Source: a virus
Virus record (IMG/VR): IMGVR_UViG_3300045125_000127
Strand: one strand, 5' to 3'
DNA: 64,000 nt
A program made the position numbers and the translations under genes. Below, piece after piece: positions 7,715-42,670 of the stretch (position 1 is its first letter; each line of letters starts with the position of its first letter). Under the pieces are notes generated by a model that saw only the letters and a program-made list of their open reading frames with translations, made no database searches and was not told the DNA's origin.

Positions 7715-8653
7715 AGGGATGAAATCCGTTTGGTGTACGCCAACGATTGGTGGGATTACTTCCCGTCGGGCGTAGTTGCTCGGCAACGGCAAGCGGTATT
7801 ACGCTACTGCGGCGACGAGAACTAACAGACAGAAGAAAGAAGTGGTGGCGGCGGTACGTTTTGGTCGATCTGACCGAAGAAGCGTGGGCTGACGAGGACG
7901 AGCGTCACGCCTTTTTGTAGGAAAAGGTAGGTAGCCTTTCTTGAGTTTGTAGACCACGAAGGCAGGCGTGGTTCGCAAAACTACGGACGTGGGCTTAAAC
8001 ACAACAAGACGTGGCAGGAGTTTTACGACCGCTACTCCGCCACACCGAGCAGAGCTGCGATTACACGCAGTTCCCGGTGGTTGGATGGTCGGAAATTCAA
8101 GGTCGTTGAGCGGATAACTGCAGCAGAGCGGTGCCGCCATGTATTCATTGTTTGGCTGCCATGGCCGACAACTTCCTTGAAGCTGCGGTGCTAGACTGCG
8201 GCAAGGTGAGGAAACGAAAATGAGACTTAAATGGGTCGGTATTTTGCCTCTCTGTGTTTTTTGCGTTGGGCACGATTGCGGGGTATTACGTTGCAATTTG
8301 GGACCAGCCCGTTTCGCCCCATTTGGTGGACAAGGAACACAAAGTAGAAGACAGTGTTTGAAAATCCTGGCTGTTGGATCCTTATGGGGAAAGTGGTAAA
8401 AGGCCAACCACAGGGAGAGAAATTGTGGGACACTTTACATCAAGACAGACCGGCGAGTACACTGAAGTCCAGTTCGTCCATGCGGGCGACACTTGCCGTT
8501 ACTCTGGCGACATGGCGTGGGAAGCGCATTGGGGCGGGCGATGGCGGGCAAAGGGCCAATGTTAACCACGACTGTAAAACAAGGAGTAGTTCTGTTTCTG
8601 GATTCTGGAGTCGGAAATGAACGAAAGCGTCAAAACCGTCAGTTACCCCGGCG

Positions 8654-13499: not shown

Positions 13500-14133
13500 T
13501 TAAGCCTCAGTGCCGAACAGTTCGAGGATTCCAGATGCCCGCCCGCACGTCCCTTCCTTCCACTTGATGATGGGTAGTCCTTGTCGTAGCGAGACAGACA
13601 AATAGGTGATCTTGTCGCTGTTCAGGTCATTCTCGAACCGCTGAATGACCGATTCGATGCCTGCGGGGGTGTCCCTGATCTTGATCGAGCAGCAGCCGTC
13701 GATGGTTTGTTCATGGGGAAACTGGTTGATGAAAGTTAAGGCGAACTTCATGTGGATTTTGCCGCCGTCCACCCTTCGACCCAGATGCACCTGTAACCAG
13801 CGTCGATACCGTCGCAGTTCAGGTTGCCGTTAGGAGACTCGACGTGGAAGTGGTACGCATGTCCCTTCTCGATGGCGTCCCCGAAATGATCCTTCCAGTA
13901 GTAGTTCGGAGTCTTCGGCAAGATCAGCTTTTTGGGGCGAACGTGAAAGACAGTGGTGGACGTTGCTGTCGAACTGATCTGCTTTCACGGACCACTCGAC
14001 CGGGAGACACACGCCTCGCTCGATCAGCCCCCATGAGACAAGATGCTTCGGTTCGTCAGCCAGCACTGCGGTCAGGGTTAGCATCCCGATACCCGTCGCC
14101 GCCATCGACCTGAGGTGCGTCACGCCTGTTCAT
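13500..14133 (-). CDS. twin-arginine-signal protein, paralog 1 (frameshifted)
   Basis: MNRRD(A)LRSMAATGIGMLTLTAVLA...KHLVSWGLI...PVEWSVKADQFDSNVH. Confidence 0.6.
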
Positions 14134-14149
14134 TTTGTTCTCCCAAACA

Positions 14150-14603
14150 TGGTATTCGTCATCGTCCCGAACCACACCGACCCTTCATTCCGGCTTTGCC
14201 GAACAACTTATCGAACACCGCAGCACGCTGACCAGTCGGTCCTTTTCTGTGCCGTCCACGGTCTTCGACGCTCAGCAGTATGCACCATCCTCAACCCCTG
14301 CCGTCGAGAGGGCTTTCCCGAATTCCTGCAATTTCCGCATCAAAGGCATGGTGCTTGCCTGAACCGACTTAGACACGGTGGAAGATCTGCACCCAAGTCG
14401 TTTGGTATTGAAAAACGCCACGATGACGTAGGGGATGCTGCTGGCGTTGTCTGGCTCACGCAGTTGGGCGCATAGATGGTTTTGTCGAGGAACGGTATCC
14501 AGTACACGCCGTTGTCGGGCTGGATGTTGCCGAACACCGTCTGGACTACTTGGTGCAGGGCGTCCTGTTGTTCGTCGTTTTCGAGCCATGTCTTGAACTG
14601 CAT
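14150..14603 (-). CDS. putative internal head protein (frameshifted)
   Basis: Starts MQFKTWLENDE; ATAGATA motif 5 nt upstream. Confidence 0.5.
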
Positions 14604-14696
14604 ACGGTATCTATCAAGTTCAGAAAAATTCCGATTTTCGTCCCAAAACCGAAACCAGCCACACTAACTAATGCTGAGGAGAACCAGCGTAAGAAC

Positions 14697-15790
14697 ATGA
14701 CCCTGTACTCGTACCGCTACCGCCTGATGCCCAACGCCAACCAGCGTAGTCTTGCTCGCCAAGCACTTCGGGTCGATCCGGTACACCTACAACCACTTCC
14801 TCGCTCAGGAAGGAAAAGTACCTTGCCGAGAAGAAATCCTCGAACTACTACGGAGACTGCAAGGTACTCACGGAATTGAAGAAGACCCTGCCGTGGATGA
14901 AGGGTGTACTCGCAGAGCCTCCAGTTCGCCATCAAACAACTCGACGCCGCCTACAACAACTTCTTCGCTGGCAGGGGACGCTTCCGGAAGTTTAAGGCGA
15001 AACACACCAATCAGTCTTCCGCATCCCACAGAACGGTGAAGGCGGTCGAGATAGAAGCCGGTCATTCCCGAAGTTCCTCGATGGTGGTCAAACTGGTCAG
15101 GCGTCTTCGGATCGACAAGACTGGTTCGCCACACGATCGCAGGAACGCTGGCAGTACCACGTCAGCATCACCGTGGAGCGGGATATCTCGAACCCGAAAC
15201 TCGAGCTACCGAAGTCGGCGGACTGGGGATTAAGACGCTGGCGGTGTACGACGGCAAGGTGTACGAGAACGTCGTTTCATGCTCGGACACTGGCTTCCTG
15301 GCGGTTGAAGATGGTGCACGCACCTGAGCAAAGAAAAAGAAGGGCGAAATAGGAGCGAGCCAAGAAACGGCTCGAAGCCAAGATGCACCTGCGGATCAAC
15401 ATCAGACGAACCATATCCACTGACGATGAAGAAGATCATCAACGAGAACCAAGTGGTGATCCCGAAAGTTCATGGTTCGGAACATAGCCGACGCAAATCA
15501 CCAACCTGCAGGTGCGATAGCCGATGCCCTGTTTCGAGATCACCAGCAAGAGTACTAAGGCGAAGTGGTATTGGCGAAGCAGTTCGGTTAGATCGGTGGT
15601 TTGTCGAGCAAAGACGTGTTCTGGCTGGCCGTGCGGATCAACCAGAACCAGAAGTTGCCGATCGGCGGTGGTTGCCAGGTTGGTGGAAGATCACGACCGG
15701 GACATAAACGCCGCCACATGATCTGCAGCAAGCGACAAATAGAGCGCAGAGTACCGCTGAGCGGCGGGAATTAAGCGTGTGACTCAGGGA
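14697..15790 (+). CDS. tnpB: IS605-family TnpB RNA-guided nuclease (heavily frameshifted)
   Basis: YRYRLMPN...HFGSIRYTYN HTH, DLGIKTLAV-like RuvC-I, zinc finger and HDRDINAA C-terminus. Confidence 0.88.
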
Positions 15791-31024: not shown

Positions 31025-31080
31025 AAGCTTTAATCTCCTAATTTGCCCACCAAATTGACTTCTTGTCTCATACATAAGGC

Positions 31081-31620
31081 ATGAAGTCAATTGAAATCGA
31101 CATGACGAACTCGTGTTTGGTTTTCTTACAGTTATTGAGCGAGGTCGGTCGCTTGAAATGACACACGAGCTTACTGGAAATGCAAATGTAAGTGTGGCAA
31201 TGGCAAAATCGTCATGGGCAAGCATTTAAGAACTGGCAGCATAGCTTCCACTGTGGTTGTATCAGGAGCCAACCGAGTACAAGGTACACAAGGAAGGTGA
31301 TATAAGTGGTGCGTATGTGGTCGGGTGTTAAATACAAAGCCAATGTGCGAGAGATAGAGTTTAATCTTGACATCGAGTGCGCTTGGGATTTGTTCCAATT
31401 ACAAGATGGCAAGTGCAGCTTGTCACGGTATGTCCACTGCATTTGGTTAGGTACTACAAAAAGCACCGAGACAAGCGAACAACTTCGCTCGATAGGAGTG
31501 AAGCAACACAAAGGGTTATATCGAAGGTAACGTACAGTGGGTTCACAAATGGCTTAACGTCGCGAGGAACGAATTGAGCATTCAAGATTTCATTAACACC
31601 TGTAAACATTGTGGCGGAAC
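31081..31620 (+). CDS. free-standing HNH-type homing endonuclease (frameshifted)
   Basis: YWKCKCKCG...HLRTG N-terminus; Q-GKC...SLDRI...KGYIEGNVQWVHKWLN. Confidence 0.75.
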
Positions 31621-32080
31621 ATGCTGGAAAAAGTCATTAGTGGAGGCCAAACAGGGGCCGATCAAGCTGGGGTGAGAGCCGCCAAAGAGTGCGGGATTCC
31701 AACCGGCGGGTGGTTGCCACAAAGGGTGTTTGACCCAAGACGGACCCCGCCCCGAAATGTTGGAAGTTTATGGCATGAAAGAACACAGTGGCGGCTATGC
31801 CGCACGAACGGAGGCCAACGTAAAGGACTCCGACGGTACAATACGGTTGGCGAAAAACTTCAAGTCGGCGGGCGAAAAGTGTACTCTGCGTGCCATAAAA
31901 AAATGGTTCCGCAGGCCACACTTTGACGTGGACGCCAGCAATCCCGGACCATTCGGAAGTTGTAAACTGGATTGTTGACAACAACATCAAAACGTTGAAC
32001 ATCGCCGGTAACACCGAGGAAACTGCCTCTGGAATCGGCGACTTTGTTTACGAGTTTCGTGAAAGTTTTCACCAATGTCA
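31621..32080 (+). CDS. putative molybdenum carrier (SLOG superfamily) protein (frameshifted)
   Basis: MLEKVISGGQTGADQAG..AAK..GIPTGGW, YAARTEANVKDSDGT, TLNIAGN. Confidence 0.85.
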
Positions 32081-32488
32081 AAGAGCGTTGTGGAAAAAAG
32101 GCCGAACAAAACGACGCCTGATTATTTCGTCCGGTTCGTGGTTGGTGGAAGGGCGGAAGACCCTTTGGAACTGGACGGGGTTTTTACGGTAGCCGAGTTG
32201 ATGCGTAAACAGAAACGTTTTGGCATTCGGAAGAAGAGGTCATCAAAGAAAATATTCCTCTGGTACAACGAAAATATTCTTTGCCCGCCGTTCAAAGAGA
32301 ACAAGAAGAAGTGGGGCAAGGACGCATTGTCTTGGTGGAAGATTACGGCACGCAAGCCCATCAATATGCTCGCCCCGCTGATCTGCATTTTGCGAAGGCA
32401 ACGTGTTGTGCGAACCATATACTCTCGTTCGCCGGGCAATATCGTGTACGAAGACGAGTACCAAGTTGTGGCCCAAGTGCGGAAATGA
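32075..32488 (+). CDS. hypothetical protein
   Basis: Clean 137-aa ORF. Confidence 0.55.
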   Translation: MSKSVVEKRPNKTTPDYFVRFVVGGRAEDPLELDGVFTVAELMRKQKRFGIRKKRSSKKIFLWYNENILCPPFKENKKKWGKDALSWWKITARKPINMLAPLICILRRQRVVRTIYSRSPGNIVYEDEYQVVAQVRK

Positions 32489-33189
32489 AAATGGCAAAAT
32501 ATAGTGTCACAATTCCGCCGCCCTCTGCTAAAAGAATGGCGAAATTGCAAGCTGATCCTCCGAAAGACTCATGGCTGGGAAGGGGATACAGTTGTCACAC
32601 ACCAGTTGCAAGAAGGGGTCAACTCTTTTGAGTTCGACGTGCCCGACGAGTACGAATGGATTCACTCCACGAGCATCACAGACGGGTTGAGTTTCGCCGT
32701 CAGTTGTGAGTACACCAACTCGACCGAAGCCGCAAAGAAACTCGCCAGCTAGTGCCACAAAAGCTATGAAGAAGAAGAACAAGCCGACCGAAGAAACGGT
32801 CGCACCGTCAGCGCCCGAAACAATCCGATTCCGGTATTGTCGTCAGGCCAAATGCCCAACAAATAGACGCCGCTTCCGCTGACATTGTGGCAAAATTGGC
32901 TGCTCTCGGAGGATCACCAGCAGAAGTGGCGGCTGTATTGGCGGCAGCAGAAATTGTGGGAGAGCGTAACGACGATCACTGTTGCCCGGTTGCCAATTAC
33001 ATTAAAAAGAATGCGAAATTGCCACGGCATTCGTACATATCGGTGCAGGCCAGCGTCGTTAACTTGCTGGAACATATGGCCGGTGATCCATTATGTTCGG
33101 TTCCGATCCCCAAAGGCGTTCAAAAGTTCATTGAAGCTTGGGACGGCGGCAAGTACAAAAGTTGGCCGACGTAAATTAAGGAGTGAATA

Positions 33190-33501
33190 ATGAAGAAATT
33201 CATCGTATTGTCGCTGTTGGCTTTGGGTATCATTGTTGCCGACGCCAGTGCTTGCGGCGGTCGTCTGTTTGGTCGCTGGCGTAACCGTGGCGGCAGTTGT
33301 GATTCTGGTGCTTACTATCCGCAACAGTGCGGCCCCCAGATGATTGTCGAAGACAACACAGTTGGAGCGCCGACGGTAACTGCCCCGACTCCGGCCAACA
33401 ACACGCCAGCGGTTCCTAAAGTTATTGATCCGGTTGTGATCCCGACCCCGGCCAAGCCGTTCACGAAGCCAGCCCCTTCGTCCAAAGCTTTGCCGAAGTA
33501 A
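33190..33501 (+). CDS. secreted P-rich protein resembling planctomycete small exported proteins
   Basis: Signal MKKFIVLSLLALGIIVADASA then CGGRLFGRWR; RBS AAGGAG. Confidence 0.6.
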   Translation: MKKFIVLSLLALGIIVADASACGGRLFGRWRNRGGSCDSGAYYPQQCGPQMIVEDNTVGAPTVTAPTPANNTPAVPKVIDPVVIPTPAKPFTKPAPSSKALPK

Positions 33502-33514
33502 TTCGGAGTTTGAG

Positions 33515-34933
33515 ATGATTCGCACACGTTTCGCCCCCTCCCCTACGGGATATCTCCACATTGGGGGCGTTCGTACCGCCTTGTACAATTGGCTCTACGC
33601 CAAGAAGCACGGCGGTCAGTTTGTTCTTCGCATTGACGACACCGACAATCAAGAAATATGGACGAAGCCCTCCAACCGATATTGGATGGCTTTCGGTGGT
33701 TGGGCATGTATTGGGACGAGGGTCCAGAGGTCAACGGCCCCCATGCACCGTATTTCCAATCTCAGCGAAAAAGACCGTTACACGCAAATTGCCGACAAGC
33801 TGGTTCACGGCGGTCAGGCTTATCGTGGCGTGATGGAGAAGCTGTCCGAGGGTGCCAGCATTTACAAAGACGATGGCGGTGCCATTCGTCTGTTCATGGG
33901 TCGTGAGGGCAAGATCGGTTTTGACGATGCCGTGCGTGGCCGCATCGAGTGGAACCGGCGTGAAATTAAAGACCCCGTAATCGTCCGCAGTGACGGCACG
34001 GCCCTGTACAACCTTGCGACGGTCGTTGACGACCACGACATGCAAATCTCGCGTTTTTCGTGCAGAGGAACATCTGTCGAATACGCCCATTCAGTTGAGA
34101 ATATACGAGGCGTTGGAGTGGGCACCGCCGGTGTTCGGGCACCTGCCGTTCGTGTGCGCACCCGGCAGCAAAAAGAAACTCAGCAAGCGTGACATGGAGC
34201 GGTTCTTGACGCCGGACATTTTGTCCCGATTGGCCTCACTCGGATATACCGAGGATCAGGCAAAAAGCCGGACTGAACCCGGCTACGCTGGCGTATTATC
34301 AGGCGATGGGCTATTTGCCTGCCGGGGTTTTGAACTATTTGGCCCTGTTGGGCTGGGCCACAAGTGACAACCGAGAGTTGTTTACTTTGTTGGAGCTAAT
34401 TGACGCATTCGACATTAAAAACGTACACATGCAGCCCGCTAGTTTTGATCCCAAAAAATTCATTCACATTAACGCCGAACACATGCAGAAGCGAACCGGG
34501 ACGCTTTTTCCCGGAGTATGCGATAATGTTGCACAACGCCGGGGTGGTGGACACGTTGGCTGAGAAGCCGCTTGCGCCCTTTGCGGAACAAAAACTGAAA
34601 AGGTGGCGGCGGCGTGCGGGAGACCGGCTGAAGGTTTGCTCCGACATCATCCAGTATGGAGCGTTCTTTTACCGTGACCCTCAGTACGACGAGGTCGCTT
34701 TCAAAAAGCGTTTGGGCGACGACAATATCAGGAAAATGGTCTTGCAGTTCGTGACAGAACTTGGTGATATTCACGAGCCGCAAGATTTCGACAAAGCGTT
34801 TCACGATTTCTGTGAGACTAAAGGGCTGAAACCGGGAGACATGGTACATGCCGTCCGCATTGCCATCACGGGTCAGCCCATCACGGCCCCGGTTTGTTTG
34901 ATTGCATGGCTATTCTCGGTGTTCAGGAAATGA
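33515..34933 (+). CDS. gltX: glutamyl-tRNA synthetase (frameshifted)
   Basis: [59 protein letters not shown]. Confidence 0.95.
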
Positions 34934-35871
34934 GACGGCGTGTCGATCTGGCGATGTCGGTGGATTTCTCGGCGAGATTGATTTGCCTTTACAACCACGA
35001 TCAGCTATTATGCGAGGTGTCCTGATGTTACACAAACGGAGACGGAAGATGACTGGAACGACGACCGAAGCTTCTGCTTGCACTCTTGGCAATGGTTGCA
35101 ACCAATCTGGTTGCAGCAACAAGTCCAACCTGAGTGCGTGTTCGGGAACCCCGACGGAAGTGTGCAGAACAGAGCGTCCGAGAGTTGGCCTATCAGAAGT
35201 GGGGAAGAGGCCGGGCGACCTGAAGGCGACGGGGGTCCAATTTTGGTTGGACGCCGAAAAAGAACTGACCGCTGACGAGTGAACCTCTGGTTGGGGGATC
35301 GGGGAGCGAAGCCTTGGTGTTTTGCACCAAGGCTTCGTTTTTACTTTACCACCTTCTCGAAACGGGGTACTGTCTCGAAAAGGAGGTTCACATGAGTGCG
35401 GCTGCAATCTTTCCGTCCGACGTGGGTCGTTGGCACGTTGCTTCTAAAATGGCCGAAGAGGGTCGTTATGACGATTTGAGGGAAAAGTACAGGTCAAGAA
35501 TTTGTTGGCGTTCTTACCGTTTTTTCGCTTCGCAGGTTTCACAACGACAAACCCGGCCAGTGGCCCCGCCGTCAAATTTGATTCCCAAGGTAAATTCGGT
35601 TCTGATGTCGAACGAGAACCACTCTGGTATCAGGAACAGTTCGGACATTGAGCGGTATCACGGGTTGATCCGCAAACTTGAAGACGACATGAGCGATGCC
35701 TACTTCACTTGTCCGAATGAATTACGGACCAGACCTGACAGGGCTGGCTCTCGTGGCACTCTTGCGCCGTTCCTATCAAGAGCGGAACGAGATGGACGAG
35801 ATGGAGTTACAGTGGAAAGTTAATGAGGCTTTGGGCAATGCGAAATTGATGAACTGGTAGTAAATAGGGCG

Positions 35872-36033
35872 ATGAAAAAACAAGACTTTGTGGCGGGGGT
35901 GGACTACTATATTGACGAGAAGGGGGCGGTGGGTTTTCACCAGAACAATTCCTTCTTCGGCGGGGCACCTGTTGCAATAACAGGTGCCGTCATTGTCCGT
36001 ACCGTCCCAAAGACGCCCCAAGAGGGAACATGA
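35872..36033 (+). CDS. DUF5522-like small Cys-rich protein
   Basis: DYYIDEKGRWVFTEQFLLRRGTCCNNRCRHCPY; GTAAATA upstream. Confidence 0.7.
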   Translation: MKKQDFVAGVDYYIDEKGAVGFHQNNSFFGGAPVAITGAVIVRTVPKTPQEGT

Positions 36034-36420
36034 TAAAAAGTGAAGAGTTTCGTCTTTATTGTCGCTTGCTCGCAAACCTGCACCGGGAGATGCGAAGCGG
36101 GCAAGAAGATAAAGCGGAAATCACTCGTACCCAGATGGACGAGCCTCACAAGGCCATGACGGTAGACGAGTGTCGAATTGCCAATCGTCTGTCGGCAAAA
36201 TTGTGGGCAATACAGGTTGCTGAAATTGATTCAGTTGTCGATCAATACTTGGCTGCGGACCATACATAGTGTGTCCAGCCAAGGAGTGTCATGCGACAAG
36301 AAGACGACGATTGGGTTCTTTGGGGGCTGTACCTGTTGCTGATGTGCGTCATAGGCGTATTTACGATGTTCGCCCTTTTTCACCTTCCTCAAGTTGCCTC
36401 TAATGCTTCGCTAAGGGACC

Positions 36421-36900
36421 ATGAATAAGAGGATATTTACCTTTACCGAATGGATGGCCCTTCACGAATCAAGTGCGAGCCGTCCCGCAGCCAAAACCGG
36501 CCTGTATCCTATGGGCTACGGCGGCATTGGCCTGTATCCTCTCTCGCACTGGCTCCCCGCCGCCGCAGACGCAGTCCTTTACGTCACAATAGACGACCGG
36601 TTGTTCGACAACGGAGTAAGTGCGCCTTGGTCTATCGAGCATATACCTGGGCCTGATCCGCACCCCAATCCTAACACTGGAACGGGCGGTCTGTTTTCAA
36701 TTGACCACATACCGGGTCCGAAACCCTACAAAGACTTCAACAAGGCCGGAGAGGGCGCACCCCTTCTCCATCAAGCACCTCTAAGAGAGAAAATCGTGAA
36801 GCCGATTTCGCATTACTGTCGTCACCCGGACGCAGATTGGGTTCTATTGCCGGACGACATGAGTTTTCCCCCGCCCGGCCAGGAAGAATACACCTGTGCC
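36421..36900 (+). CDS. putative internal head protein
   Basis: MNKRIFTFTEWMALHE start; KTGLYPMGYGGIGLYP. Confidence 0.5.
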
Positions 36901-37227
36901 TATTTCAACCAGAGTGAAGGCATCCAAATGATTGCCAGCATTCGGGACACGGGAGCCTTGCGCCCTGATTCACGTTTCTATCGGTCAGATCAATTTTTTC
37001 CGACCCGACCTGACCGAATCGGAACTCTACGAGTACACCTTGGATCAAGCCCCTGATATACTGGATTTGTTCTTCCCCGGACGTGGTTTCGCTCGACAGC
37101 CCGACGATCCCCGCAAGCCGACGTTGCATCATTACTTCTCGATTATTGAGGAGGGGCGACAAATGAATGGCCCGACTAAAGAACAACTTCGCTGGACTTA
37201 CATCTACGAAGAACTGACCAAGCCCTA

Positions 37228-38911
37228 CAGGGGAACAATCGGTTCTACGTCACTACCGCTATTGATTACCCGAACGCCATGCCGCACATCGGCACTGGCG
37301 TTCGAGAAGATCGGTGCGGACATTCAGGCCCGGTTCCGCCGGTTCTGTGGTCAGGACGTGTACTTCCTGATGGGGAACGACGAGAACACCGTAAAGGTGC
37401 TTCAGGTTGTGACCAAACAGGTCGCACCGGTTAGCGGTTTTGACGGCCCTCTTTCTTTGGGCGAATGGGTTGCCACGCCCACCGACGGATTTTCGGCGGG
37501 ATACGAGCCTCAGAAAAGGCCACGACGAAGCAATACGTCGATAAGATGGCTAACGAGTTCAAGTTGGTTTGGCGTGAACTCGGAATTTCCAACAACGATT
37601 TCATCCAGACGAGCGAAGATCGCCACCGCATCGGAGTGCAGAAGTTCATTCAAACCGTTTACGACGGCGGCTTCATTTACAAGAAGCCCTACAAGGGGCT
37701 GTACTGTACCGGCTGTGAAGAGTTCAAATTGGAAAAGAATCTGGCGGGCGGCAAGTGTCCGAACCACCCGCACCTCGATGTCGTGACACACGAGGAAGAG
37801 AACTACTGGTTCAAACTGTCCGAATTCAAGCAGTGGGTTCTCGATCTGTACGTTCCGGCATTCGACAGCGCCCACATCGAGATTCTGCCGGAGTGCCGGA
37901 AGAACGAGATGGAACAGTTCGTGAAGGCCGAACTGGAAGACATTTCCATCAGCCGACGCAACGAGGGCTGGGGCATTCCCATTCCTTGGGACAATTCGCA
38001 GGTGGTTTATGTTTGGTTCGACGCCCTGTTGAACTACATGACGGCCGTCGGGTTCGGAACCGACGACGAGAAGTTTCACAAGTGGTGGCCCGCCGATGTC
38101 CACGTCATTGGCAAGGACATTACACGGTTCCACTGCGCCCTGTGGCCCGCAATGATTCATGCTTACAACAAGACCGCCGAGAAGAAGATCGCTTGTCCTT
38201 CTCAGGTGTTTGCCCACGGTTTCATTTATCAAAAGAAGGGCGACGAGTTGGTGAAGGAGTCCAAATCCAATGCCGGGATCAGGCCGATGGATTTGGTTCA
38301 CCTGTTCGGCGGTGACGCCGTTCGTTACTACTTCATGAGCAAATGTCCGTTCGGCGGGGACGGCGAGTACAGCCTTCGACACTTCCAAGAAGTGTACAAC
38401 GCTGATTTGGCAAACAATCTCGGCAACCTCGTCAGCCGTGTCGTGAATATGTCCAAGCAATATTTCGACGGCCGGTTCCCCGAAGGATCGGAAGGGGTCC
38501 AGTGGTATTCCGAAAGGGGATGTCAAGAAATGGGTCGGGCACACTTTTGAGTTTGAGTATCGAGACGCTTTGGAGGTTGTGTGGGCCACCCTGCGGCGGG
38601 CGAACGAGTACATCGAAAGTGAAAAGCCTTGGGCTTTGGCTAAGGCGCAAAAATATCCGCTGGTCGGCCACGTCCTTCGCAATCTGGCGGCATGTCTCAG
38701 GATGACGGCGATAATGTTGCAGCCGTACATGCCCGAAACCGCCGAGAAGATTTATAAGGCGTTTGATTTTCCGCAAGCGTTGGGGCACTGGTCGCTGGAC
38801 TCTTTGCTGGCTCTGGGCCGCAACAATTATGCAACTTTGGACGGCGAATTCAAACTTCGGGAGTTTGAGGGTAAATATCCACCCCTCTTCCCCCGCAAGG
38901 AACACAGTTGA
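37228..38911 (+). CDS. metG: methionyl-tRNA synthetase (frameshifted)
   Basis: FYVTTAIDYPN..PHIGT, GNDEN, FIQTSE, YCTGCEEF, YVWFDALLNY, GKDITRFH, KESKS, DLANNLGNLVSR. Confidence 0.95.
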
Positions 38912-39141
38912 AATTCTTCGTCGGTGATAAAGTTAAGGTTTTTGCGACCGAGAAGGACGGCACTTACCGACACCTCTATGACGGCCTCGTTGTTGAAGCC
39001 AACGACGACGAGGCCCGTGTTCAGATTCGAGAAGGCACCTACGGATTTTGGTTTTCTCAAGCCGATGGCAATAAGGTAGGAGTCTATAATGGACGATTCA
39101 TCTCCAAAAGCTTCAAGTGGCGAAGCATTGACGACGAATGA
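38908..39141 (+). CDS. small SH3-like protein ending KWRSIDDE*
   Basis: FFVGDKVKV...GLVVE...ARV; tag at C-terminus. Confidence 0.65.
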   Translation: MKFFVGDKVKVFATEKDGTYRHLYDGLVVEANDDEARVQIREGTYGFWFSQADGNKVGVYNGRFISKSFKWRSIDDE

Positions 39142-39349
39142 CTTGCCGATTTGGTTGCCGAAACCGGCCGACAAGCCTGTAACCATTCGTCTGCTTCCGC
39201 CCACCAAACCAATTACTCCTTATCAGTTCACACGAGTTCATCACGTTGCGGCGGTGTGCCCGTGCCCGATTTGCGATGCGAAGAGAGCGGCGGGCGTCGA
39301 AGAACCGAAAGTAAAACAAAAGAAGTGGAGAAGTATTGACGATGAGTAA
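39128..39349 (+). CDS. gp32-like SSB fragment minigene ending KKWRSIDDE*
   Basis: IWLPK..KPVTIRLLPP...HH...CPCPIC resembles the T4 gp32 W..IRFLP..H..CPVC block. Confidence 0.55.
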   Translation: MTTNDLPIWLPKPADKPVTIRLLPPTKPITPYQFTRVHHVAAVCPCPICDAKRAAGVEEPKVKQKKWRSIDDE

Positions 39350-40219
39350 TCTCAAGAAAATCTTGTTCGTGACTCATCACTATGCCGGTGACGTTCCTCA
39401 CAACAAACAGTACCATTCGGCCAGAGTCGAAATGCGGGATCGCCGCATCGCCTCTTTGACCGAGTGTATAACTTCCATTCATAGGACTTTTGGCGGGTTC
39501 CGTTTCGAGACGACGTACAAACAAGACCAACCCATTCTCGGCCAAGTCGAATCACGGTTTTGGCCCGAAGTTATAGTTTGCGTACACAAGGACAACCACG
39601 TTCTGAACGATTTGCGGATTCCCAACTATCTGTATCAGGTCGCCTCCACCGACCAGCACATGAACCCGCTGCATTTGGGCTTCGTTGCCCAGAAAGTTTT
39701 GGCCCAGAAGGTGAAAGAGGGGAAACACGACTTTTACTGCCACATTGAAGACGATTTGGTGTTTTCGGACCCGACCTTTTTTGATAAGCTTCATTGGTTC
39801 AACGAGTGCAATCGGCCACCGTTCTGTGACTACGAGCCGCTGCTGGTTCCGAACCGGTTCGAGACGGACGGCCATAAAAAGTGTTTCGTTGACGGTCACG
39901 CTGGCGACATCACCCGTGGCTTTCAGCAACGTGGCCCGAAGGCTTTCCGTATGCCCGTGATGGACTATGTGAATTTCGTTAAGCCCGACAACGTTTATTC
40001 CGGGTGTTATTTCTTGAACCAGAGGCAAGCCGACAAGTTGACGACCGACGGCTTCTACGACAAGCCCCGGCCGGATTACAGGTGGATCGGGCCGCTCGAA
40101 AGCCTACAATGACTCTGGCCCTGTTGCAGACTTTTACAATTTACAAACCTGAGTTGAATTCCGGTTTCTTGGAAGTTCAACACTACGGCAACCGCTACGC
40201 AGGAGAGATTAAGGGATGA
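39342..40219 (+). CDS. glycosyltransferase-like conserved hypothetical protein
   Basis: LHLGFVAQKVL...FYCHIEDDLVFSDPTFFDKLHWF...PNRFE. Confidence 0.5.
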
Positions 40220-41099
40220 ACGATCTGGCTCTGAAAAATCAACCCGGACCCACAGTTGGTTTATGACTACAACGACTGTCTCACTCGTGGCGTGTGCCTT
40301 CAGTGTAGCAAGAAACTGGAATGGCACTTGGATGTTGGCCCGAACGACGACAGGTTTTGTTACGCCGTGTGCTGTACCACACGGTACTCTATGATCCCAG
40401 ACAAAGTTCGTGTTATTGGCACATTCGCTTATCCACTTTCCCAAAAAGAAATGGACGAAGACGAAGCCGAACTGGTTGACGATGATTTCATCAAACAACT
40501 CCGGGAGTTATGATGTACTTGTACGCCACAAATGTATGGCAACAACCAATTGATGCCCGACGATGAGTCGGATGAAGCGTGGGCAGAGTGGGGAAAAATT
40601 GAGAAAGAATGGGAAGACGCCCTCGAAAAGTACGAGGCCCGGCTGAAAGAAATTGACGACAAACTGCCAGATTCCCGTGAAGAAGTTCATGGAGAAGTGC
40701 CATCTTCACGACGCAACTGTTCCCGACGAAAACTGGAATTTCAACATCGGTTTCACCGGACCTCGCACGCTACAATTGGTCATTCACCAGAAAGATTGGG
40801 GGCCGGAATATTTTGTATTTTGCGGTACAAGATCGCTCATCCGGGCCATGTGACTACATTGCTCGGAGGCATGTTTCCGGCGTCGAACAGAAAGTGCATA
40901 AGGGTCCGGGGTTCGGATCAGCAGTCAAAACTACTGGTTGTATGATGAGTGGGATCATGTTGGCGAGTGTCACGGCACGAACGTTTTCCGTCACTCGTTT
41001 TACATGACGAACGGCGTGGAATTCGACATCCATTTTACGGATTTCAGTTTCGTTTACATTCCTGTCGGAGAAGGCTTGGTCGAAGAATAAGGAAATGAT

Positions 41100-41276
41100 A
41101 TGGAAAACAAGTTTAAGCGGATAACCATACCTCTTGTAAGGCGGATATATCCTTCACTGATCGCCGAAAAAATCGTCTCGGTGCAACGAATGAAGCGGCC
41201 GGACGATGACACACGGAAGAAGATTGTTCGTCCCAAGAGGTATCGCAGTATTGATGATCCGTGGGAGAATGCCTAA
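41100..41276 (+). CDS. major-capsid (gp23-like) fragment minigene 1 with RYRSIDDPW tag
   Basis: In-frame 58 aa: MENKFKRITIPLVRRIYPSLIAEKIVSVQRMK...RPKRYRSIDDPWENA*. Confidence 0.8.
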   Translation: MENKFKRITIPLVRRIYPSLIAEKIVSVQRMKRPDDDTRKKIVRPKRYRSIDDPWENA

Positions 41277-41548
41277 TGGATACCTCCCAAAACCCGTGCA
41301 ACGAAATTCCTCTGAATCCGGGCGGGTTCAACAAGATTTCGATCCCCTTGAGCGCCGCATTTACCCGCAGTTGATCGCCAATAATATCGTATCGGTTCAG
41401 CCGCTACTCGGCCCGACCGGGTTGATTTACTATTTGCGTCATCGGTACTCCCAAACTAAAGGGCAAAGAGGTTCAAGACGAACCCCGCAAGAAAGTCATT
41501 AAGCCGAAGAAGTATCGCAGCATTGACGAGCCGTTCGAGGCTTCTTGA
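41276..41548 (+). CDS. major-capsid (gp23-like) fragment minigene 2 with KYRSIDEPF tag (frameshifted)
   Basis: FNKISIPL(V)RRIYPQLIANNIVSVQPLLGPTGLIYYLRHRYS...KPKKYRSIDEPFEAS*. Confidence 0.75.
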
Positions 41549-42406
41549 GAAGAAAGCAGTTTACAACACCCCGTCCTGCGAAGTAGGATGGGGTGTTGTG
41601 TTTGTGGAGGAAAAAATGAGAGAAGTGAAACAGGCAATCGTCTGGCGTGGCGATCTGAAGGAAATGCCTCTTGGCAAGAAACAGGGTCAGGCTGCGCTGG
41701 CTCTACCTGTTCCTGACAGAGAAGATGAAGCCTGACATCGTGCCGTGTGAAATCGGGCCGGATGATTATCGTGCGTACCCGGAAACGCAAACTGTTAACG
41801 TGGCTATCGACGCCGCAGAAGCGGCATGGATTGTGGGAAACTACAAAAGGCGGTCCTTCTGGCTCGCACGGAAGAGGATATTCAGACCCTTTTCAAGCCG
41901 CACGCAAAGCCGGTTTGCGTGCTTATATTGTCACGGACTTGGGGCACACCGTTTTCAACGGCGAGCCTACGGTAACGATGCATGGCGATTGGTCCCAATT
42001 ACGCCGACGAAATCGACAAGATCACCGGGGCAGAAGGTCCGCTCGGCAAATTGAGGCTCGTGTAACATGGGCGTTAGGCAAAACTTGGCAACTTAATTTT
42101 TTTGAGTCTTACGGCCCGACAAGTTGGTTGCATTGCCTGCAAACAAAGTAATTCCAGAACCAGAAGACAAGTGCGTTTTTCTGGTTAGCGATATGGTCCC
42201 TCGAGAAGGACCGTCGGCCAAACCGACGCACCCTTGTTGTTGGCCTCGTTGCCAGAAAGAGGTCGTTTCCTGACACGAGGCCAATGTCAGGGGTGCGGCG
42301 TTCCGAGGCCGCTTTTTGTTTGTTGAAAATGACTCGGCCACAACAACATGGATAGATGTTGGAGTGCGCAAGAAAAAGATAATGGCAGTCTGCAAGTTGA
42401 TTCCGA

Positions 42407-42622
42407 TTGCTCTTTGCCCTGACTGTCAAGATAAATACGGCCCTCGCAAAAACGGCGGCGGGGTTTGGCATTTCCCGCTTGGCACGATCCGCCCTACCCG
42501 AAAAAGGTACTTTTGACCGAAAGATGACATCGAAATCTTTGAAAAAATGCTGGCGGTTGGCCGGACTGGAGAAGACTCGAACAAAGATGCCAAACTTCCG
42601 CCGAAGCATAGACGACAACTGA
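42407..42622 (+). CDS. hypothetical protein ending FRRSIDDN*
   Basis: Tag variant at C-terminus; 5' end uncertain. Confidence 0.4.
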   Translation: MLFALTVKINTALAKTAAGFGISRLARSALPEKGTFDRKMTSKSLKKCWRLAGLEKTRTKMPNFRRSIDDN

Positions 42623-42670
42623 ATTTCGGTGTAAAATATTGAGGTGTAACTAGAATAGATAGGCGAAACA

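Follow-up and report, generated by a model that had tools for sequence, protein, structure and literature searches.

Tagged minigenes of huge phages carry segments of the major capsid protein

In an uncultured huge phage, two short tandem genes each link a piece of a T4-like major capsid protein (MCP) to an end peptide of the same type. Are such pieces real genes, where do they come from, and what use could a phage have for them? They lie in a 64,000-nucleotide stretch of viral DNA (IMG/VR record IMGVR_UViG_3300045125_000127), the whole of which is called the window below. The window encodes tRNAs, tRNA synthetases of the Ile/Leu type and for Glu and Met, an RF1-like gene and numerous small plus-strand genes. 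A first-pass annotation, made from the letters alone, had reported two tagged ORFs of 58 and 90 aa at 41100-41548, and both are present there. Minigene 1 (mg1; P0001, the short form; 41100..41276, plus strand) encodes 58 aa behind an AAGGAA ribosome-binding site. It consists of an N-arm block of the MCP (FKRITIPLVRRIYPSLIAEKIVSVQ; 41112..41186; columns 58-88 of an MCP HMM built from 68 full-length MCPs of the clade), a basic linker and the tag KRYRSIDDPWE (41235..41267). Minigene 2 (mg2; P0004, the long form; 41276..41548, plus strand) begins with the ATG of TAATG, where it overlaps mg1 at 41276, and encodes 90 aa in clean assemblies. Its N-arm block (FNKISIPLVRRIYPQLIANNIVSVQPLLGPTGLIYYLRHRY) is found at 41327..41448 and its tag, KKYRSIDEPFE, at 41507..41539, so that both proteins end in K-x-Y-R-S-I-D-[DE]-P-[WF]-E.

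Downstream of mg2, a plus-strand hairpin at 41556..41605 (22 pairs including one 18-bp run; -33.5 kcal/mol, z = -7.1) precedes the start of a peptidyl-tRNA hydrolase gene (PTH2; 41616..42070, plus strand, frameshifted in the window), which is the conserved downstream neighbour of the minigenes. The hairpin may be a terminator, an attenuator or a processing site. Four more plus-strand genes nearby carry the tag. Two overlapping small genes of 77 and 86 aa at 38908..39349, ending KWRSIDDE, belong to the same tagged set as the minigenes. Two further genes occupy 42071..43131; both are frameshifted in the window, with clean copies in L003, a 39.7-kb Logan short-read contig of the same phage in which the genes are intact. 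The first encodes a Cys-rich protein of 176 aa ending FRRSIDDN, and the second a protein of 153 aa that has a membrane helix at its N-terminus and the ending EYRSIDDE.

Nearly all of the longer genes in the window are frame-broken; the Ile/Leu-type class I tRNA synthetase is spread over four frames and MetRS over at least two. Alignment to L003 gave 171 mismatches and 152 gap openings over 17.1 kb. Across window positions 31079-48117 this amounts to approximately one indel per 110 bp and 1% substitutions, from which it follows that most of the ORF breaks in the window are artefacts. An alternative genetic code was ruled out, as recoding any of the stop codons lengthens ORFs equally on both strands and leaves no signal. 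The first minigene had been described as in frame with its own start and stop and thus no indel artefact. This stands: the ORF is continuous over 41100-41276, and the protein is identical in two Logan assemblies. The second requires a correction. In the window it runs through more than one frame, with a -1 shift near 41349-41351 (a missing base) and a +1 shift near 41465 (an extra base), and it is nevertheless a genuine 90-aa gene, being intact and identical in contigs L003 and L004 from two runs. At each of the window's indels, 41349 and 41465 among them, contigs from four runs of three studies (biofilter and wastewater) contradict the record, so the frameshifts of mg2 are record errors and not biology. 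Two of the wastewater runs labelled "RNA-Seq" are probably DNA.

The capsid origin of the block is supported by profile and pairwise searches. Against the Pfam family Gp23 (PF07068, T4-type major capsid protein; gathering cut-off 24.4 bits, 376 profile positions), mg1 scored 31 bits over positions 3-34, and the middle frame of mg2 scored 43.7 bits over positions 10-48; both are above the cut-off. A phmmer search of the PDB aligned residues 24-60 of mg2 with residues 97-133 of T4 gp23, GMVRRAIPNLIAFDICGVQPMNSPTGQVFALRAVYGK. The conserved N-proximal gp23 block that the first-pass annotation had named is thus the right one. To the MCPs of the clade the minigene block is 67-83% identical. The minigenes cover just positions 3-48 of the Gp23 profile, or columns 57-106 of the 478 in the MCP HMM, which is short of a complete fold, and AlphaFold2 gave no fold for mg2 (pTM 0.21). 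They are fragments of the Gp23 family and not capsid proteins.

A second contig in the best-covered run (25.4 kb; depth 32.0 versus 31.9 for the phage contig) matches the window only at 41335-41432. It carries the full-length MCP gene of the phage itself, in which the block stands between DTGDIAQFKR and LRFRYSSNKG, and the ends of this contig recur in two more runs. With the full-length gene on a separate contig of equal depth, the minigenes are not misassembled pieces of it, an outcome that had been named in advance as fatal to the claim. An MCP split into parts supplied in trans is likewise out for this phage, because the phage's own MCP includes the block and that of a complete relative (below) is also complete. 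The alignments to the phage's own and related MCPs proposed at the outset gave an uneven picture. The mg2 block (41335-41432) is approximately 92% identical at the DNA level to the own MCP gene, at most 81% identical to 76 other MCPs of the clade (median 74%), and 65% identical to mg1. This indicates that mg1 is old and that mg2 has recently been copied anew from the MCP gene or converted by it.

Relatives carry intact versions of these genes. P0002 (84 aa) comes from a JGI contig whose upstream genes are those of the window, and P0003 is an intact ORF of 90 aa. P0005 forms a tandem with a second copy of 72 aa, and after the pair come a gene for 64 aa with the tag, PTH2 and a Cys-rich gene that is also tagged; the adjacency of minigene and PTH2 is maintained in three lineages. 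The selection check that had been suggested gave pS of 0.6-0.9 between minigene homologs, with synonymous sites saturated, and pN of 0.24-0.5. The relatives' genes are intact and under purifying selection, which disposes of the other outcome feared at the outset, that they are decaying pseudogenes. The minigenes are functional, derived from the MCP and selected at the protein level.

That the ORFs are nothing but misassembled pieces of a real MCP or functionless debris is, on this evidence, extremely improbable. Such a reading could draw on the indel-rich record, on the frameshifted state of mg2 within it and on the presence, in the relative L023, of an internally deleted and frameshifted MCP copy. 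Against it, the ORFs are intact in contigs of three studies and the phage's own MCP is separate, synteny is kept among relatives with just 40-60% protein identity, and peptides are conserved where synonymous sites are saturated. Shared frame breaks, a lack of protein constraint or loss in relatives, as expected of pseudogenes or artefacts, were not found for the minigenes. The copy in L023 (1031-1715) has an internal deletion and runs through residues 4-120 and then, in another frame, 430-490. It may represent a stage in the origin of minigenes, or a defective variant.

The tag is the second half of the puzzle. Nine copies are found in the window, all on the plus strand, and six in 4.2 kb of clean sequence. 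Across the nine window copies the Arg codons alternate between CGC, CGA, AGA and AGG and the Ser codons between AGT, AGC and TCA, and this synonymous variation means that a peptide is selected and conserved, and not a DNA repeat. In two lineages, tags are common to the minigene products and unrelated proteins. Most copies read I-D-D and some I-D-E; the site of T4-type prohead proteases is L/I-x-E. A derivation of the tag from the MCP motif RWRLYKDP, suggested by a MAFFT alignment, was not significant (PSSM shuffle p = 0.06-0.8), and in a profile-profile test this motif was only the third-best site (p = 0.13).

Looser resemblances were also seen. The window encodes RTIDSPWDKS at 2460-2489. In the complete relative G001 a 663-aa ORF upstream of the protease gene (335216-337207), by its position the probable portal, contains VPDSPWDKS in its C-terminal tail, a string similar to the latter half of the tag (IDDPWExS). 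The YRSIDD tag was looked for and found absent in LR756511.1, a 595-kb phage. In that genome (L105/L106, near 234.4 kb and 220.5 kb) a 158-aa ORF ends in FDKITIPKINRIYPQLLL, and an ORF of 86 aa, whose RRIYPQL motif is weak, lies close to an ORF that appears PTH2-like by eye.

A phmmer search with P0004 against 1.84 billion cluster representatives revealed 1208 matches, the top ones mostly complete proteins of 60-130 aa. From the 150 matches listed of these 1208, and further sequences, 154 proteins were collected, and 95 of them fit only columns ~55-107 of the MCP HMM. The block is fused either to unrelated domains, at either end, or to one of three recurrent end peptides, namely K-x-[YW]-R-S-I-D-D-P-W-E, the C-terminal [VI]-[ND]-W-[KL]-x-E-G-F and R-W-K-V-Q-D-R-W-x-Y. 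Per-column information content correlates between free blocks and full MCPs (r = 0.74, a value somewhat inflated because the matches were chosen by similarity to the query). For P0135, a fusion of block and domain, AlphaFold2 gave a confident cargo domain and a disordered block. As the block is unfolded in this model and in that of mg2, it behaves as a portable peptide module. P0135 belongs with P0088, P0092, P0138 and P0051 to a subfamily in which an alpha/beta domain (~80 aa, D-P-E-F-F motif) is fused to the block; fold searches with the P0135 cargo domain gave no significant structural match.

In the lineage of contig L022 the minigene product ends KVNWLKEGF and an unrelated neighbouring protein ends RVCWLKEGF. 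This 37-kb contig has three capsid-related genes (293-1336, 8001-8255 and 13876-14793): a 348-aa Gp23-like protein without the insertion domain, the EGF-tagged minigene and a 306-aa MCP copy without the first 125 HMM columns. The sole cultured example among the matches listed is the Xanthomonas jumbo phage XacN1, where the block forms the C-terminus of the 261-aa hypothetical ORF261 (BBA65409.1; L110:2298-3083). In the INPHARED phage genomes the block matched 1068 times in 1066 records, and among the matches listed only XacN1 has it in a second place. The text and supplement of the XacN1 paper hold no virion data on ORF261, which appears only in the gene table. Scans of IMG/VR proteins for minigene products returned full MCPs only, a JGI metagenome scan 79 full MCPs and one minigene, and an ESM Atlas search generic Gp23 clusters only. 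Full-text searches of a literature library found no description of MCP-fragment genes, and tagged genes of this type look new in kind.

A search with a degenerate DNA pattern for YRSIDDPWE led to G001 (IMGVR_UViG_3300049215_000771; 532,729 bp; CheckV 100% complete). Synteny with the window extends over 48-65 kb of this genome, at 39-78% protein identity, and includes GluRS, MetRS, a tagged 77-aa gene, a minigene, PTH2, the Cys-rich tagged and the membrane-anchored tagged genes, an HNH gene and an RF1-like gene. A coding pattern for [YWF]RSID[DE] matched 34 times in this genome, versus 0 in reversed-pattern controls. The tagged ORFs encode 65-231 aa and are spread genome-wide, with a cluster of seven at 517-524 kb that includes three pieces of the MCP (an example match is L154:2818-3060). 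Of 33 tagged ORFs examined, six encode such pieces, referred to here as tiles, and one encodes a prohead-protease paralog. The tiles correspond to MCP residues 45-102, 218-310, 307-432, 318-368, 400-448 and 438-463, and the tag of the 307-432 tile is at the N-terminus. In a self-search of G001 the extra copies spanned nearly all of the conserved MCP core, with none for the insertion domain (103-217) or the last 15 residues. A copy of MCP residues 1-58 belongs to this coverage; it is joined to a zinc ribbon in a 98-aa ORF on the minus strand (475757-475461) and has no RSIDD tag. In this ORF the N-terminal propeptide of the MCP (residues 1-50, including LLESQRLMNE) precedes a CxxC...CxxC ribbon.

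The tagged protease paralog of G001 (238627-238157, minus strand; 156 aa) matches residues 44-166 of the protease at 39% identity. It has lost the His of DHP and the Ser of SSRG, the two motif residues that we take to be catalytic in the gp21 family, and judged from these losses the paralog is probably a pseudo-protease without catalytic activity. Compared with the G001 MCP, the tiles differ at nearly all synonymous sites (pS 0.75-0.99) and at few non-synonymous ones (pN 0.14-0.34). At just 51-71% DNA identity to the MCP gene, a use as donor cassettes for its repair is unlikely. The 318-368 tile represents a second widespread family of 61-108 aa with the same types of tag, and many of its members have an N-terminal MKNYWL leader. 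Several small proteins in the EGF-tag lineage (P0159-P0168; L022:11732-12040) begin with a leader of the form M-K-N-[YH]-W-L-x-[RK], which is similar to the C-terminal NWLKEGF tag and also to the capsid-targeting sequence of T4.

Block and tag are modular and portable, and the tagged set tiles the MCP. We put at about even chances a modular "tile and tag" system in the huge phages of this clade, in which each conserved MCP segment and a probably inactive copy of the protease is turned into a small disordered protein bearing a lineage-specific address peptide, which also marks dozens of other small proteins. Its parts have partial counterparts in known phages. The block corresponds to the conserved N-proximal stretch of T4 gp23 that includes the Gol region, known from the Gol/Lit/EF-Tu exclusion, where a short linear piece is active alone as a peptide (PMC3014915). 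Unlike Gol, which is part of the full capsid protein, the block is here a conserved stand-alone tagged gene, and further MCP segments are treated alike. A short terminal peptide on several unrelated small proteins is also seen in the internal proteins of T4 (IPI-III and Alt), whose capsid-targeting sequence is portable to foreign cargo (PMC9958956). The tag, in contrast, is mostly C-terminal and different in sequence, and it is found on ~34 proteins including membrane-anchored ones. It is also without a clear L/I-x-E cleavage site, and encapsidation is here putative.

Short C-terminal peptides dock the HK97 maturation protease and encapsulin cargo to the inner face of an HK97-fold shell. The tag is likewise short and mostly C-terminal; it has no sequence similarity to these targeting peptides, and shell binding by it is putative. 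To our knowledge, the cargo in such systems is never a piece of the shell protein. The tiles also share with MCP paralogs such as the T4 vertex protein gp24 an origin by duplication of the major capsid gene within a phage genome. Whereas gp24 is a full HK97-fold shell protein, 25-45 residues of the MCP are left in the minigenes, whose products are predicted to be disordered and could not form the fold.

Any explanation has to fit the tiling, the probably inactive protease paralog, the occurrence of the tag on ~34 proteins, the disorder, the purifying selection and the location away from head genes. Since all conserved core segments of the MCP and the probable pseudo-protease are tagged alike in G001, a role in head morphogenesis or as decoys is likelier than one specific to a single block. 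The reading that we favour, and hold tentatively, is that the tagged pieces are head-protein mimics delivered by their tag and acting in capsid morphogenesis. Each minigene product would be an intrinsically disordered peptide of two motifs, the free N-arm block and the tag, separated by the basic linker. The two minigenes would be members of a tagged set of head-morphogenesis mimics, which in G001 would comprise the six MCP segments and the probably inactive protease paralog. Much as the capsid-targeting leader of T4 does, the tag would dock these peptides on a common partner where the head is being assembled, which would be the scaffolding core or else the shell's inner surface. The MCP-derived segment may then take the binding site used by the same segment of the real MCP, and the peptides could thereby regulate, cap or bridge capsid assembly. 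The ligand of the tag, that of the block and the effect on assembly are what we infer here.

In support of a role in head morphogenesis, the residues of T4 gp23 up to 105 are disordered, lie inside the unexpanded prohead and probably touch the scaffold, and the head-length mutations A94V and G97S map to this inward stretch (PMC9546572), to which the first part of the block corresponds. Furthermore, MCP and protease are physical partners in the prohead core. Less readily accommodated is the position of the minigenes among tRNA-synthetase, PTH2 and RF1-like genes, away from the head genes. The N-terminal membrane helices of several tagged proteins are awkward for a simple encapsidation signal, and most copies of the tag, reading I-D-D, look unlike the T4-type cleavage site. 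In addition, the interior tiles (218-368) mimic segments buried within one subunit. They would bind folded MCP poorly, and docking to the lattice suits them less well than recognition by sensors, chaperones or proteases whose ligand is unfolded MCP.

The last point leads to a role as decoys. The tagged tiles would then compete with the real MCP for host factors that recognise its segments in linear or unfolded form, and by occupying these factors would spare it detection or degradation. Candidate targets are Lit-type proteases, sensors of the CapRel type, STAND/Avs proteins that sense MCPs, and the chaperones and proteases of quality control. Tiling of every conserved core segment together with a probably inactive protease paralog, as observed, is what one would expect of a broad array of decoys. 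Interior segments suit linear epitopes better than lattice contacts, and the tiles are predicted to be disordered. Lit is activated by a linear gp23 stretch of 29 residues, described as its most conserved region (PMC3014915), and several defence families sense MCPs (bioRxiv 10.64898/2026.01.04.697583). We nevertheless consider decoys unlikely: the free peptide activates Lit and does not block it, the known Avs and CapRel sensors recognise folded proteins, no sensor gene is linked to the tiles, and the tag on ~26 unrelated small proteins, some membrane-anchored, is left unexplained. A narrower host target is EF-Tu, whose domains II-III are bound by the T4 Gol peptide, which enables cleavage by Lit. 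As a free-standing Gol-like binder of EF-Tu the block would let the minigenes modulate translation, and the surrounding tRNA-synthetase, PTH2 and RF1-like genes, with PTH2 adjacent in three lineages, are consistent with this. The block aligns within the first quarter of gp23, in which a review places the Gol/EF-Tu binding region, the best-conserved part of the protein (PMC3014915). This explanation is very unlikely, as it accounts for one of at least six MCP tiles and not for the protease paralog, and EF-Tu is too abundant for easy titration.

Two further uses can be envisaged, both of which we regard as distinctly improbable. The tiles might be weapons, dominant-negative interface peptides made early that poison the capsid assembly of co-infecting relatives or satellites. 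They retain exactly the residues conserved in the clade and hence would fit the MCPs of many relatives, they are encoded in a region of small, probably non-structural genes, and the tandem pair has diverged into a short and a long form after duplication. However, the tiles match the own MCP at least as well, as the DNA comparison of mg2 with the own and the 76 other MCPs exemplifies, and self-poisoning would thus need a separate safeguard; lineage-specific tags point instead to a partner encoded by the phage. Alternatively, all tagged proteins including the tiles might be packaged internal proteins, brought into the head by the tag as capsid-targeting signal and ejected into the next host to act there at time zero. 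Their small size is like that of T4 internal proteins, there are ~34 per genome, tags are found at either end, the MKNYWL leaders resemble the T4 targeting sequence, and some have membrane helices, which are common in ejection proteins. Against packaging, the tag has no clear protease site, and what use pieces of MCP would have on arrival is hard to see.

If the tile-and-tag interpretation is correct, these phages have found a new use for peptide mimics of their own shell, be it steering the assembly of giant capsids, blinding capsid sensors or sabotaging rivals, and mimics that a virus derives from its own capsid would form a new class among viral regulators, decoys or weapons. The best-conserved stretches of T4-type capsid proteins would then be constrained by an interaction of the free peptide and not by the fold alone, which bears on why the Gol region is so conserved. 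The tag would be part of a genome-wide address code, with ~34 proteins per genome and lineage-specific codes, that marks a hub or compartment in huge phages, and it would provide a handle for sorting hundreds of hypothetical proteins. The cultured phage XacN1, with the block in its ORF261, would be a possible experimental system.
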